This document shows, in pieces, positions 59,864 through 64,000 of a stretch of DNA of 64,000 bases (within the stretch, counting starts at the first letter, position 1; every line of letters starts with the position of its first letter). The stretch is from IMG/VR virus record IMGVR_UViG_3300040801_001133, positions 1 to 64,000 of that record; one strand, written 5' to 3'. Origin of the DNA: a virus. The notes under the pieces are model-generated. The model was given only the letters and a program-made list of their open reading frames with translations, did not search any database and was not told the origin of the DNA. The position numbers were made by a program, and so were the translations under genes.

Positions 59864-60184
59864 TTATACTGGGTTAGAGAAAACACTTTCAATTTCATTG
59901 TTTTCTTCTTCCGTTTCCTCCTCAGTATCATTAGTTGAAAAGGCATCAACCTGCTCTTCAGTAAGTAGCTCTACTGTTTCTTCGGTACTGTCTACATCAT
60001 CCTCAAAAACAAAAGATACTGTTTCCTTCTTTACTGCTCTCTTATACTTTAAGGTAGGATGAGAAAATAACTCTTTCATCTCACGTCCTGTCAATCCTAG
60101 TTCTTTCTTGATTTCGGGACGTGTCATTCCACGATCTTGGATCATGCTTAAAACATCACTAGCTTTAATAATTCGCTTTTCCAT
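59864..60184 (-). CDS. small HTH-like protein with an acidic C-terminal tail
   Basis: RGMTRPEIKKELGLTGREMKELF looks like a helix-turn-helix. The C-terminus is TNDTEEETEEENNEIESVF. Confidence 0.4.
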   Translation of the reverse strand: MEKRIIKASDVLSMIQDRGMTRPEIKKELGLTGREMKELFSHPTLKYKRAVKKETVSFVFEDDVDSTEETVELLTEEQVDAFSTNDTEEETEEENNEIESVFSNPV

Positions 60185-60210
60185 AATAGTATAAATAATT
60201 AGGTTAAATT

Positions 60211-60639
60211 CTAAGAGTAATATTCGTCTGCCTTCTGAATTACATATCCTAAATCATTGGGGATCAGTAATTCATCAAACATACCAATAGGAGACTTAGC
60301 AGGAATTTCATTACCTGCATTATCTGAGTACTTGTTTGTTACAAAATTATATGTGGCTTTCTTATCTTTGGAACTATACTGCACATGAGTATACAGAACC
60401 ACAGTAAATAACCCTTCTAAGGTTACTTTACTATCTAACATAGAACCAATGGTCTTCATCTTATAGGCCCCAGACTTTTCATCTAAATCACTATGAGTAA
60501 GACAAATAAAGTTGATGTCTTTTCTCATGTTTTTGCCAAATGATATTACGTCATATGCTTCTTTTGCCAAATGATTGAACTTATCATACCCCTTCTTCAG
60601 AGCATTTGACATGAAATGTTCTGCAAGTATATATTGATA
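60211..60639 (-). CDS. P-loop ATPase (Sak4/AAA_24-like), exon 2
   Basis: The frame is open from the splice acceptor. The track 'M' at 60642-60640 is TTG, interpreted here as the last 3 nt of the intron (omega-G at 60640). Exon 2 starts TAT CAA TAT (YQYILAEHF...). Confidence 0.6.
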   Translation of the reverse strand, partial: YQYILAEHFMSNALKKGYDKFNHLAKEAYDVISFGKNMRKDINFICLTHSDLDEKSGAYKMKTIGSMLDSKVTLEGLFTVVLYTHVQYSSKDKKATYNFVTNKYSDNAGNEIPAKSPIGMFDELLIPNDLGYVIQKADEYYS

Positions 60640-61504
60640 CAAATTGTTATCGTAAAGGCTCTTTATCCTTTACTTCTATGTTTTAAATTTCCATACATAA
60701 CCATAAGCAGATTTTTTGTTTCCTTTACAGCAAGTAGATATGTTCTTTTTCATATCTATGTTACCTAAAAATCTGGCAGCATCACTAGCAGAATCCCAGT
60801 CCCGAATAAAGACTTTATTTCTGTCAAACTGGGAGATAGGTTTTTTATTAGCATTTGCTGAATTAATGACCCACTCCTTATGTCTAGGTTTGCTGTTGGC
60901 AATACTAATACGTTTTTTGGCTTCTTCTGTATGCTTATAGCCTGAAGAGCCTTTACAAGAAGTAGGACCCTGCCCACCTTCCGACAGATTAGTCAAACGG
61001 AATCCCCAAATTCTAAATTGAGCAATCCAGAATTTTTCGGTTTCTTGCCAAAACTCATCTTCTACTCCTTCTAATAATTCTATTTTAGGTCTTAGACCTT
61101 TATTAAGTATTGTTAGAAGCCAGTTACTTTTATAGTTAGTCTGTTTTTGTTGCTTATGTATGGAACAATGTTGATACCATCTATCTTTTAATGTTCTTTT
61201 TGTTTTACCTATATATCTAATTTCATTAGATGTAGGGTCTGCAAGTGTGTATATTTTTACCATGCACAAAGATAACAAAATAAGATGATTATCAAAATCT
61301 AAATCGTAATATTTACATAGTTCAGACTATATCATCAGTATTTCTACTGTTCCGCGCTCGTGGGTTTTACTGTCTTTAACTTAATAATAAGACTCCATAA
61401 CCTAGTCGTTGAACCTTCAATGTATTTCTACAAAGCTTGGCTGCTGATTGTCCCTACGGAGGAGTTTCCAGCAATTCACGGAATTTAACGACGACTATCT
61501 TTTA
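60640..61504 (-). mobile_element. group I intron (865 nt) carrying a GIY-YIG homing endonuclease ORF in its 3' peripheral region
   Basis: P1: exon GACGAU (61510-61505) pairs with intron GUCGUC (61495-61490), with a terminal U-G wobble. P10: intron GAUA (61499-61496) pairs with exon 2 UAUC. R element is GTTCAACGACTAG (61402-61415) and S element is GATGATATAGTCTGA (61322-61337), giving P7 GACUA/UAGUC. A terminal hairpin GTAAAGG/CCTTTAC is followed by ...AATTTG with a 3'-terminal G. Splicing restores the frame. Confidence 0.75.
60676..61263 (-). CDS. GIY-YIG homing endonuclease (intron-encoded)
   Basis: MVKIYTLADPTSNEIRYIGKTKRTLKDRWYQH contains GIY, YIG and the conserved Arg. Also NLSEGG. The C-terminal part has NUMOD-like segments (GYKHTEEAKKRIS; KKSAYGYVWKF). 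ATG is at 61263; the track start is TTG. Confidence 0.8.
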   Translation of the reverse strand: MVKIYTLADPTSNEIRYIGKTKRTLKDRWYQHCSIHKQQKQTNYKSNWLLTILNKGLRPKIELLEGVEDEFWQETEKFWIAQFRIWGFRLTNLSEGGQGPTSCKGSSGYKHTEEAKKRISIANSKPRHKEWVINSANANKKPISQFDRNKVFIRDWDSASDAARFLGNIDMKKNISTCCKGNKKSAYGYVWKFKT

Positions 61505-61786
61505 ATCGTCAATTACCACATTCTTAATATCAGGTCTATTATCATTAATATGTTGCAGTATACTAACAATAGTTGGACCATCTGAAACTGAAGCATAGTT
61601 ACCTCCTTCAGAGAGTAAAGTGCCATAATTGGTACGAGAGCCCTTAAAGGGTAGTGGTTTATCCATTACATTAAGAATGGCCGTCTCTTTAGGATCAAGA
61701 CCAATAATATCTAATTCTTTAACTTGGCCTAAAGAAGTGGATTTACCACTTCCAGTAGAGCCAATAACACAATAGGTAGTTGCCAT
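61505..61786 (-). CDS. P-loop ATPase (Sak4/AAA_24-like), exon 1
   Basis: Walker A VIGSTGSGKST and Walker B NVVIDD. The ORF stops at a TAA that lies immediately inside the intron, as is typical of phage group I introns. Confidence 0.65.
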
Positions 61787-61788
61787 AT

Positions 61789-62346
61789 TTATTTCTTTTT
61801 GCTATATTTAACTCCTTCTACAATAATATATTCAATAGTACGAGGGTCAACCTGTTTAGGTCTTCCTCCATCTTCCATATCATAGAACTCTAGTCGTCCC
61901 AGATCATTCATTTTTCCTTCATGACGACCTTTCATAATGCGAAAATCACCAGGAATATATTCTGTGATAGGGTTCTTAATTAAATCTTCAATGAGCAGAC
62001 TCACTTCTAATAGACTTGCATCAGCAAACTCCAAAGATTTATCAGCAATTTCCTTATTTAATGCTGCTTTAGTTTTCTTCTTATCTTTTTTATAGAATCC
62101 TACAGTCATTGCTACTCTAGGAGAATTTATTAATTTCTTAGCTAAAGTGGTTACATTAACATTAGTAATTTCACTATCAAAATAATCTGCTGAAGACAGA
62201 ATATCTTCCACATACTGTTTACCAATAGTGATCTTATTACCTAAAGAATCAACTAGATTTGCTTCATTGTTACTAATACTCTCTACTGTATAGAAAGATA
62301 ATTCTGAAAGAATAGAACCCTTCTTTAGTGAATTAAATTTACTCAT
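61789..62346 (-). CDS. hypothetical protein
   Basis: 185-aa ORF with a 1-nt start/stop junction with the vWA gene. Confidence 0.5.
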   Translation of the reverse strand: MSKFNSLKKGSILSELSFYTVESISNNEANLVDSLGNKITIGKQYVEDILSSADYFDSEITNVNVTTLAKKLINSPRVAMTVGFYKKDKKKTKAALNKEIADKSLEFADASLLEVSLLIEDLIKNPITEYIPGDFRIMKGRHEGKMNDLGRLEFYDMEDGGRPKQVDPRTIEYIIVEGVKYSKKK

Positions 62347-63134
62347 TATTTAGTTATATTTTTGTAAAATCCTCTTGATACATCTTTTCCTAAAGAAACT
62401 TTAGTGCTGTAGTCAGCCCTAGATTTAAAGGTAACATTTAATACTTCTGCTAAACCCTTACCTGTATTATCATAAGACTTCATATTGCTTAGGTCAACAC
62501 CCAGTTTTTCGCTTATTGATAGGCAGTCAATTTCTGTACCTATAAAAGTTACAGTAAACTGACCTTTTCTTCTTTCTATTTCTTTTTTAATGTAGGAACG
62601 TCTGTACTTTTTTGAATAATTTTCATTCCTATCAGTGTAAATATTAATAAGAACTTTTTCATTTAATTTGACAAAGGAGTCTAACTTTTTAAAAGTGATT
62701 CCTATTGCATCATAAAGAGCTGTCATATCCAGAGGATAGAAATTAATTCTTTCTTCAATCTCTTCGGGGTCTTTATTAAGTACATTAAACTTAGCTTTAG
62801 AGCTAAAGGAACAACATGTGTATTTATAAAATACATCTTTACCCTGTTCTTCAATTAATTTATCAATTCCTTCATTAATACCAATGACAGCATTCTGTAT
62901 TTTACTACCACTCATAGAACCACTACAGTCAACAATATCAACTATATGTACTACTGGTAGTTTTTTAGGTTTTCTTTTCTGTTTAGGTGCTTTATATTCT
63001 TGACCTAGTTCTAGATGCTGTTTCATAGACTCGTAAGAATTAAACCCGTAGTCCTTAGCTACTTTTTCTCTCCTTACTTTATTAGCCTTTTTGATAGACT
63101 TGAGTAATTGTTCTGGATTATCTATCTGTTTCAT
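62346..63134 (-). CDS. von Willebrand factor A (vWA) domain protein
   Basis: VVHIVDIVDCSGSMSG is a MIDAS DxSGS motif at the end of a hydrophobic strand, with a later IYTDRNEN (Thr/Asp MIDAS-type positions). Confidence 0.65.
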   Translation of the reverse strand: MKQIDNPEQLLKSIKKANKVRREKVAKDYGFNSYESMKQHLELGQEYKAPKQKRKPKKLPVVHIVDIVDCSGSMSGSKIQNAVIGINEGIDKLIEEQGKDVFYKYTCCSFSSKAKFNVLNKDPEEIEERINFYPLDMTALYDAIGITFKKLDSFVKLNEKVLINIYTDRNENYSKKYRRSYIKKEIERRKGQFTVTFIGTEIDCLSISEKLGVDLSNMKSYDNTGKGLAEVLNVTFKSRADYSTKVSLGKDVSRGFYKNITK

Positions 63135-63394
63135 TATTTACTTTTAAATTGTGAAAAATCCTTTAAAGCTCCGTTCATATTAACTCTAAAGTGTTGAGGA
63201 AACTCACAGTGACGAGATTCTACTAAATGAAGAGTTCTCATAAATGGATATATTTCAGACCCATTACTATCTTTTATTTTAAGACCAAAATGGTTTAATA
63301 ATCTATATCTTTCATCATTTGGATTAAGCATAGTGAGAACATAATCTGCATCTTCGGCTAAGTTCAGTTTTGTTATCGTAATTGTTCTTTTAAT
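63134..63394 (-). CDS. C-terminal exon of a DnaB/RecA-superfamily replicative helicase
   Basis: AEDADYVLTMLNPNDE resembles DnaB EQDADVVMFLYRDDYY. LHLVESRHCEFPQHFRVNMNGALKDF resembles the ..KNRNGPTG...L.F.....F tail. The track 'M' is TTG directly after an in-frame TAA, so the exact splice acceptor is inferred. Confidence 0.5.
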   Translation of the reverse strand: MKRTITITKLNLAEDADYVLTMLNPNDERYRLLNHFGLKIKDSNGSEIYPFMRTLHLVESRHCEFPQHFRVNMNGALKDFSQFKSK

Positions 63395-64000
63395 CAATTA
63401 CATCTACATATTTCTATGTAGCTCAGACTATATCATCATCTCAAATTTGAGATGGTGGGCGCTCGTGTTCCTATTATATTCTACTATTAGTAGTTTCAAG
63501 GATTAGTCGTTGCACCTTCTTTAATTTTTTAAATTAAAGCTTGGCTCAGGGTTACCATATCTTTCGACTTAGGCTTTCTCTGAGTTCACCCACTTTTCTT
63601 ATAATATCACTACTATAAGGGGCTTATTATAATTTGGCTAGTTAAACCTTTCATCTTTTTAGTTAATATTCCTTTTCTGTACTGGGACATATCCCATTTT
63701 GATAAGTTATAGTTTCTTTTAAAAGATTCTAAAGACCTATAAATAATAGTTTGATAACCATTAAATATTTTTACTCTAGTATGATTTGACTGTTTTGCCA
63801 TATCATAGTTAAGAGGAAAGACTTTATATCTTTTTTTACTAAAAAAATAATTTTTTATAGGATTAATTTTCATACCATAATTATCAAACCTACTCATTTG
63901 ATTTGATATTCTAGATTTAGAAATTCCTAGTTCTTTACTAGCAAAAGCAACAGATTTATACTCTTTGTGTAATTTACCAAATAAATTATAACAATACAGT
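63395..64000 (-). mobile_element. group I intron (3' portion; 5' end beyond the window) with an upstream endonuclease ORF
   Basis: The same core as the 60640-61504 intron is present: R element GGTGCAACGACTAATCC (63503-63516), CACGAGCGC, S element GATGATATAGTCTGA (63423-63437), P9 hairpin CTACATA-GAAA-TATGTAG, then ...GTAATTG ending in G before the exon. Confidence 0.65.
63613..64000 (-). CDS. intron-encoded homing-endonuclease-like ORF, C-terminal DNA-binding part (5' truncated by the window)
   Basis: The frame of track ORF 63613-63897 stays open upstream to the window edge (LYCYNLFGKLHKEYKSVAFASKELGISKSRISNQ-MSRFDNYG...). YKSVAFASKELGISKSRIS is a NUMOD1/IENR-like HTH. The catalytic domain is not in the window. 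Confidence 0.45.
   Translation of the reverse strand, partial: LYCYNLFGKLHKEYKSVAFASKELGISKSRISNQMSRFDNYGMKINPIKNYFFSKKRYKVFPLNYDMAKQSNHTRVKIFNGYQTIIYRSLESFKRNYNLSKWDMSQYRKGILTKKMKGLTSQIIISPL

Follow-up and report, generated by a model that had tools for sequence, protein, structure and literature searches.

A predicted group I intron with a putative GIY-YIG endonuclease gene in the DnaB-like helicase gene of an FpV4-related phage

At the end of the 64,000-nucleotide stretch of viral DNA analyzed here (the window), a mobile self-splicing group I intron of subgroup IA (64451..63365, minus strand) would split the gene for a DnaB-like replicative helicase of an FpV4-like phage. Judged from its sequence and predicted fold, this element (intron 2) is a genuine but ordinary, presumably self-splicing group I intron with a GIY-YIG gene, in a phage related to Flavobacterium phage FpV4. 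The whole proposal, which combines a subgroup IA intron, an ORF in the loop of P1, splicing of GGU to AAC, homing, and separate expression of the endonuclease, appears to us very probable. A preliminary description of the window had proposed a second group I intron in this gene, related to one in a neighboring replication gene (intron 1). The Rfam family RF00028 (Intron_gpI) bears this out: it matched 63641-63404 with 113.2 bits (E 1e-28), exceeding the gathering score of 50 bits, in a cmscan alignment of 238 nt to the full model (positions 1-253), and it matched intron 1 at 61538-61306 with 70.7 bits. Both matches are on the minus strand, as are all genes between 56 and 64 kb.

The window ends within an open frame, a minus-strand ORF running from 63613 to 64000. 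We therefore looked up neighboring window proteins in public assemblies and obtained two short JGI metagenome contigs, L001 and L003. L001 adds 424 nt beyond the window and ends 23 nt upstream of the endonuclease ATG, short of exon 1. L003 adds 2.6 kb and shares 1,164 nt with the window, 100% identical and free of mismatches; a window position equals 66613 minus the L003 coordinate. On L003, a 313-codon ORF is followed in turn by a 262-aa ORF (P0001), the structured core and the window's 87-codon ORF. Intron 2 is 1,087 nt long (L003:2162-3248), and its 5' 451 nt, past the window end, were read from L003:2162-2612. The helicase exon 1 that the preliminary description expected upstream of 64000 is present on this contig. 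A megablast search of 60000-64000 against phage genomes returned a 36-nt chance match only, and an exact-pattern scan of viral contigs with the sequence upstream of the endonuclease ORF gave no matches.

The splice sites were placed by comparison with gp59 of FpV4 (403 aa), which is uninterrupted (...NSDDVKETGNLAEDCDVML...). By tblastn, the 87-aa ORF of the window is 57.5% identical to the C-terminus of gp59, from residue N11 on only. The exon-1 reading frame on L003 has 313 codons, of which those up to codon 299 end in ...LYAGSDDIKDTG; exon 1 comprises these 299 codons and ends in ...DDIKDTG, with GGU as the last codon. Because exon 1 ends in ...GSDDIKDTG, exon 2 starts with N and FpV4 is uninterrupted at this point, the 5' splice site is placed after the U of GGU (L003:2161, window-equivalent 64452). 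Exon 2 begins at 63364 (NLAEDADYVL...), with the 3' splice site after G63365, and the TTG start at 63397 chosen by the ORF caller is inside intron 2. The insertion thus falls between two codons (phase 0) of the conserved motif ...SDDIKDTG|NLAEDAD..., and the joined DTG|NLAEDAD of the window matches ETGNLAEDCD of FpV4. The predicted ligated junction (64452/63364) reads ...GATACGGGT|AACTTAGCCGAAG..., as compared with the FpV4-type intron-less site AAAGAAACTGGT|AATTTAGCAGAAGAT. Ligation of GGU to the AAC at 63364 would restore a helicase of 375 aa; we infer this splicing from structure, covariation and homologues.

The predicted spliced product matched phrog_15558 over its full length (393 bits) and DnaB-like PHROG families, including phrog_19 (E 8e-11). 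The match to Pfam DnaB_C reached 28.3 bits (cut-off 27) and covers the Walker A region only; weak collinear matches to DnaB structures (PDB E-value 0.076) cover both motifs, Walker A and ...SG.IEQDAD. These scores are marginal but consistent, and they agree with the earlier naming of the host as a helicase gene, probably a DnaB-like replicative helicase. SDDIKDTG|NLAEDAD aligns with the motif SDIKDSGGIEQDAD of Helicobacter pylori DnaB, which would put the intron in one of the most conserved helicase motifs. Homing introns usually sit in highly conserved motifs. The gene order (helicase, Sak4-like ATPase, two short ORFs, primase, uracil-DNA glycosylase) parallels that of FpV4. Between the helicase and Sak4-like genes lie two minus-strand genes that are absent at the FpV4 position: 62346-63134 encodes a 262-aa protein weakly similar to phage proteins, one of them annotated as VWA domain-containing (28% identity), and 61789-62346 encodes a 185-aa protein with no family match.

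In the protein collection, 59 relatives of the endonuclease reach E<=1e-5. Contigs fetched for several of them gave ten distinct helicase loci (L003, L004, L005, L008, L026, L027, L029, L030, L031 and L032). All helicase loci examined have the same layout and are interrupted at the same codon boundary, (T/S)G|N. The endonucleases of the diverged loci are 43-59% identical. Since Rfam did not flag the homologous introns in L004, L005, L026, L029, L031 and L032, the relatives were aligned by hand as ORF-deleted constructs (alignment A3, 421 columns) and scored against a structure drawn by hand, with the long-range P1 and the P3/P7 pseudoknot included. The 13 helices of this structure, from P1 to P9.1, were paired in 92.5% of the alignment cells, compared with 74% in shuffles and 29-47% in slid controls. 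Compensatory changes were present in 45 of the 75 pairs, and 0 of 500 shuffles did as well.

The long-range P1 decides where the endonuclease gene lies in the ribozyme. The 50 nt from the 5' splice site to the endonuclease ATG contain no CC, so a local guide sequence for ...GGGU is impossible there. The sole candidate is AGCCC (63624-63620), directly 5' of P2. When ORF-deleted constructs are folded (MFE), it pairs with GGGU|U, which spans the 5' splice site (64455..64451) ~830 nt upstream. With this pairing, the endonuclease gene fills the P1 loop and P1 closes over ~830 nt. A P1 pairing had been anticipated in the preliminary description; the one found here covaries. P1 has 5 bp only in the window phage and P10 pairing is weak. 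The splice-site U would form the G.U wobble of this short P1; the U(-1):G pair is invariant in 10 of 10 loci, whereas the +1 pair is UA in six, AU in two, GC in one and mismatched in one (L026, which in the same register has G-G at -4). We also tried a P1-like pairing of exon AAAGAUA with intron UAUCUUU and rejected it, as it shows no covariation (L005, L029) and leaves the splice-site U unpaired. The preliminary description had put the endonuclease ORF on the other side of the core from that in intron 1. The core does lie downstream of the ORF and just before exon 2; the ORF itself, however, is inside the P1 loop.

Downstream of the guide sequence, P2 follows directly and the compact core from P3 to P9.1 occupies 63593-63378 (Table 1). 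A P7.1 extension between P7 and P3' is a hallmark of subgroup IA. Intron 2 has such an extra P7.1/P7.1a pairing, predicted at 63502-63469, which points to subgroup IA and to the IA2-like phage introns. The P9.1 loop is identical in the eight relatives of the intron subtype found in the window and shorter in L005 and L026.

Table 1. Predicted features of the helicase and Sak4-like loci in window coordinates
Feature	Position	Strand	Evidence
Intron 1 (865 nt), in the Sak4-like ATPase gene	60640..61504	-	P1, core, ORF, terminal hairpin and GAUAACAAUUUG
Helicase exon 2, 76 codons (NLAEDADYVLTMLNPNDERY...) and stop	63134..63364	-	tblastn to FpV4 gp59
Intron 2, part within the window	63365..64000	-	Rfam match; L003 overlap; exon junctions aligned with homologues
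3' tail GAUAACAAAACUG, terminal guanosine (omega-G) at 63365	63365..63377	-	G just before exon 2 in 10/10
P9.1 hairpin GUAAUUG-AUUAAAAGAA-CAAUUAC	63378..63401	-	6/7 pairs compensatory, 100% of cells paired
P9 hairpin CUACAU-AGAAAU-AUGUAG	63404..63421	-	Rfam and covariation
J8/7 and P7 3' strand (AUGAUAUAGUC); S element, in block TCAGACTATATCATCA	63426..63436	-	Rfam and covariation
P8 hairpin	63437..63454	-	Rfam and covariation
P3 3' strand CGCCCAC, in block GCGCTCGTG	63455..63461	-	Covariation
P7.1/P7.1a extension between P7 and P3'	63469..63502	-	4/4 P7.1 pairs compensatory; an insertion in Rfam
P7 5' strand GACUA; R element, in block TAGTCGTTGCACCTTC	63504..63508	-	Rfam and covariation
P6/P6a hairpin, includes block AAAGCTTGGCT	63514..63545	-	7/8 P6a pairs compensatory
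P4-P5-P4' domain	63546..63583	-	Rfam; 4/6 P4 pairs compensatory
P3 5' strand GUGGGUG, pairs with 63461-63455	63587..63593	-	Rfam and covariation
P2 hairpin CUUAUAGUA-GUGA-UAUUAUAAG, GNRA loop	63598..63619	-	9/9 pairs compensatory, 10 relatives
C-terminal 129 codons of P0001	63613..64000	-	Open frame, L001 and L003; motif conservation
Internal guide sequence AGCCC (3' strand of P1)	63620..63624	-	MFE folds of ORF-deleted constructs and covariation

The preliminary description ended the intron after GTAATTG and started exon 2 at about 63394, with the 87-aa ORF (63397-63134) as the exon, but exon 2 starts 30 nt downstream of that point. A TTG-start ORF is indeed open from 63397, and the proposed boundary is preceded by a G. 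However, FpV4 gp59 and 10 of 10 relatives align only from the N at 63364. For the 11 extra codons (LIKRTITITKL) there is no counterpart, and including them would shift the conserved G-N junction of the DnaB motif out of place. GUAAUUG also forms a 7-bp helix with CAAUUAC in which six pairs covary; these compensatory changes in six of seven P9.1 pairs identify GTAATTG as the 5' arm of P9.1 and not as the intron end, leaving the earlier boundary with scarcely any chance of being right. The intron could also be the compact 238-nt element delimited by Rfam (63641-63404), with a local P1 and the GIY-YIG gene free-standing upstream, given that cmscan aligned the full model there. We consider this highly improbable: the P1 in the Rfam alignment is rich in non-canonical pairs and is an artefact of a forced full-length match, the sequence 5' of 63641 is endonuclease ORF and not helicase, exon 1 ends 830 nt upstream at the very residue that precedes exon 2 in intron-less homologues, and the exon-1 end pairs with AGCCC in a pairing that covaries.

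The short P1 and the exon-1 frame that stops shortly inside the intron would also fit a decayed, non-splicing remnant, with the helicase made as two polypeptides in the manner of T4-like genes split by free-standing endonucleases. Against such decay, every ribozyme helix is kept by compensatory changes among relatives that are 54-76% identical, the only start codon available to the exon-2 frame is the TTG inside the intron, and the junction lies within a single conserved motif and is phase-exact in 10 of 10 loci. A remnant is thus very unlikely in our judgement, and we retain the 1,087-nt intron with its long-range P1 as the preferred reading.

With both contigs, P0001 is a complete ORF of 262 aa (window-equivalent 64401..63613, minus strand). 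It lies between the 5' splice site and the guide sequence, and its stop codon is in the 5' arm of P2. The preliminary description had called the part visible in the window endonuclease-like; motif residues conserved in 25 relatives and 34% identity to the GIY-YIG ORF of intron 1 (over the first 135 aa, E 5e-18) now assign it to the GIY-YIG class. P0001 has the motif IYALY...RYIGRT, and Y6, Y18, R29, H33, E78 and N93 are invariant in the 25 relatives. These residues align with the catalytic Y6, Y17, R27, H31, E75 and N90 of I-TevI, at a low hhalign probability. Residues 136-173 form a NUMOD1/HTH segment. P0001 itself is below the threshold of PF01541, which 6 of 25 close relatives match (best E 1.4e-7), and the ORF of intron 1 matches it with 26.4 bits (cut-off 22.6). 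A family profile of P0001 found no solved structure in the PDB. Formal profile support is thus thin, and P0001 is a putative GIY-YIG homing endonuclease with predicted cleavage activity. Its targets would presumably be helicase alleles that lack the intron, as in FpV4; cutting them near the insertion site would drive homing at co-infection.

Several features of the sequence around the start of P0001 suggest that expression of the endonuclease is probably kept separate from splicing. In unspliced RNA the exon-1 frame stops 5 nt before the P0001 ATG. A hairpin abutting or including the ATG was predicted in 10 of 10 relatives (z-score -2.0 to -4.95), and its arm sequences are not conserved between relatives. 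The sequence TAnnTTT(G/A) is present 15-33 nt upstream of the ATG in 10 of 10, usually in the 5' arm of the hairpin; ahead of P0001 this promoter-like motif is TATCTTTG at L003:2184-2191. In Bacteroidota promoters, TAnnTTTG serves as the -7 element. If transcription began shortly after this motif, the RNA would be missing the 5' arm of the hairpin and its ATG would be exposed. TAnnTTTG is not enriched in the whole window (96 observed vs 83 expected), and the argument for a promoter is therefore one of positional conservation. The longer sequence TTATCTTTG, which fits TAnnTTTG, stands ahead of both endonuclease ORFs (61267-61275, minus strand, and L003:2183-2191). It is likewise not enriched in the whole window, and because its other exact copies are inside large plus-strand ORFs we make no promoter claim for the window at large. 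In intron 1, TTATCTTTG ends 3 nt before the ATG at 61263, a spacing that would call for a transcript with no leader or a very short one, or for a start at the upstream TTG 61278.

In T4, I-TevI is controlled by a hairpin at the endonuclease start and a late promoter-like element inside the intron, and intron 2 resembles this arrangement. One could go further and see in these introns the first phage group I lineage with a homing endonuclease gene in the P1 loop together with a conserved control module, made up of the exon-frame stop, the ATG-masking hairpin and an internal Bacteroidota TAnnTTTG promoter in the 5' arm of the hairpin. We regard this as doubtful. If true, the module would keep translation of the endonuclease from disrupting the 830-nt-range P1, and it would be an independent re-invention of the T4 I-TevI late-promoter/hairpin switch.

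Intron 1 splits the gene of a Sak4-like ATPase (phrog_2872, 178 bits) after ...VVIDD. It has a local P1 (GACGAU/GUCGUC) and lacks P2, and its GIY-YIG ORF (61278-60676) lies between P9 and the terminal hairpin. As stated in the preliminary description, four blocks are shared by the two introns: TCAGACTATATCATCA (61322 and 63423), GCGCTCGTG (61354 and 63459), TAGTCGTTGNACCTTC (61403 and 63504) and AAAGCTTGGCT (61432 and 63536). The 64-kb window contains exactly two copies of each, arranged in the same order, where chance predicts 0.00-0.02 occurrences; together they represent the R element (P7 5' strand), the S element (J8/7-P7 3' strand), the P3 3' strand and P6. Besides the IA core blocks, the introns have in common the CACGAGCGC joiner, TTATCTTTG ahead of the ORF and a 3' end with an A-rich-loop hairpin followed by GAUAACAA(N3-4)G; they differ in P5, P6, P7.1 and P8 and in the C-terminal domain of the endonuclease.

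Without its ORF, intron 2 is 74-76% identical to orthologous helicase introns of other phages, 60% to intron 1, 54-55% to the L005/L026 subtype, which shares its helicase site, and 50% to T4 td; intron 1 is 46% identical to T4 td. The view that the two cores are paralogous receives moderate support only, as the introns belong to the same subfamily but most of the shared blocks are generic R/S consensus and identity is 60%. Recent spread of the intron within this genome, also suggested earlier, is not supported, because intron 2 is closer to the orthologous helicase introns (74-76%) than to intron 1 (60%). On these comparisons, introns 1 and 2 are members of one subfamily and not recent duplicates, and their endonucleases are distant GIY-YIG paralogues (34% over 135 aa). 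The Sak4-like gene is uninterrupted in L008 and L029, and by this distribution the Sak4 intron is sporadic, whereas the helicase intron is old and widespread in the phage group. That the two introns were invaded by endonuclease genes independently, as the preliminary description proposed, is plausible; independent and repeated invasion of introns by endonucleases is the stated consensus (PMC3984707).

On L034, the same contig as L030, a group I intron likewise splits the orthologous Sak4-like gene, but at a different site, after ...KTVGSM at about residue 164 (L034:5533-7230). There, a GIY-YIG ORF similar to that of intron 1 follows P7 and overlaps the S element, and the same gene and endonuclease family thus occur at another site and in another loop than in the window. 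A partial Rfam match (37 bits) is at L030:3273-3466.

The helicase introns of the relatives vary in what they carry. L005:3909-5644 (also L006 and L007) is a 1,736-nt intron at the same helicase site with two endonuclease genes, a GIY-YIG gene (272 aa) in the P1 loop and an HNH/NUMOD4 ORF (161 aa, L005:5003-5488) between P7 and P3', in the P7.1 region. The P7.1a loop of L029 holds an insert of ~100 nt (L029:3440-3545) that looks tRNA-like and ends in a perfect T-arm-like CCUUGGUUCGACUCCAAGG and then CCCCCA; ARAGORN found no tRNA in this insert, and L029 gave no Rfam match at E<=0.001. In L031 (1501-2343) the endonuclease ORF (280 aa) overlaps the core, extending through the guide sequence, P2 and P3 into P4/P5. 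In this phage group the helicase gene seems to be a hot spot for introns: a LAGLIDADG ORF lies upstream in the same gene in L026 (1555-2070), a second R/S core pair lies upstream in L032 (~480-560), and in L008 (2414-2959; also L009) a further GIY-YIG ORF (181 aa) lies between helicase fragments of 60 and 268 aa.

Intron 2 is like the IA2 introns of T4 td, nrdB and nrdD (sunY) in having an IA core with P7.1, in interrupting a phage DNA-metabolism gene at a conserved-motif site and in the early stop of the exon-1 frame. The T4 introns encode the GIY-YIG or HNH endonucleases I-TevI, I-TevII and I-TevIII, and P0001 would, like I-TevI, be a GIY-YIG enzyme with a C-terminal NUMOD/HTH DNA-binding part. 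Unlike the T4 introns, intron 2 resides in the DnaB-like helicase gene of a Bacteroidota-type phage and has its ORF in the P1 loop (those of td and nrdB are in P6 and that of nrdD is in the P9 region); its ORF-less core is only ~50% identical to that of td, and its promoter-like motif is the Bacteroidota TAnnTTTG in place of T4 late or middle promoters. An endonuclease gene in the substrate domain, with P1 spanning a long insertion, is a likeness to nuclear rDNA introns such as Physarum PpLSU3 with I-PpoI; those are, however, IC1 or IE introns in rRNA genes with His-Cys box enzymes, whereas intron 2 is IA-like, in a phage protein gene and associated with a GIY-YIG enzyme. In nuclear group I introns, endonuclease genes are documented in P1, P2, P6, P8 and P9 (PMC9223047), and jumbo phages infecting Bacteroides are rich in group I introns that carry HNH, GIY-YIG and LAGLIDADG genes (PMC12880540). 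In the literature covered, which is incomplete, we found no description of this helicase intron or of introns in FpV4-like phages.

These results leave current views unchanged, as phage group I introns, GIY-YIG homing endonucleases and their independent invasion of introns are already established. They correct the annotation of the locus, where apparent genes of 313, 262 and 87 aa would be one 375-aa DnaB-like helicase and an intron-encoded endonuclease. They also define a family of helicase introns that share one insertion site, and its ten sampled members have diverged enough for a structure supported by covariation. Its members, which may carry an endonuclease gene in the loop of P1, an additional HNH gene in P7.1, an insert resembling a tRNA or a shortened endonuclease, form a natural series of variants of a single intron that may be useful for studying how endonucleases colonise ribozymes.
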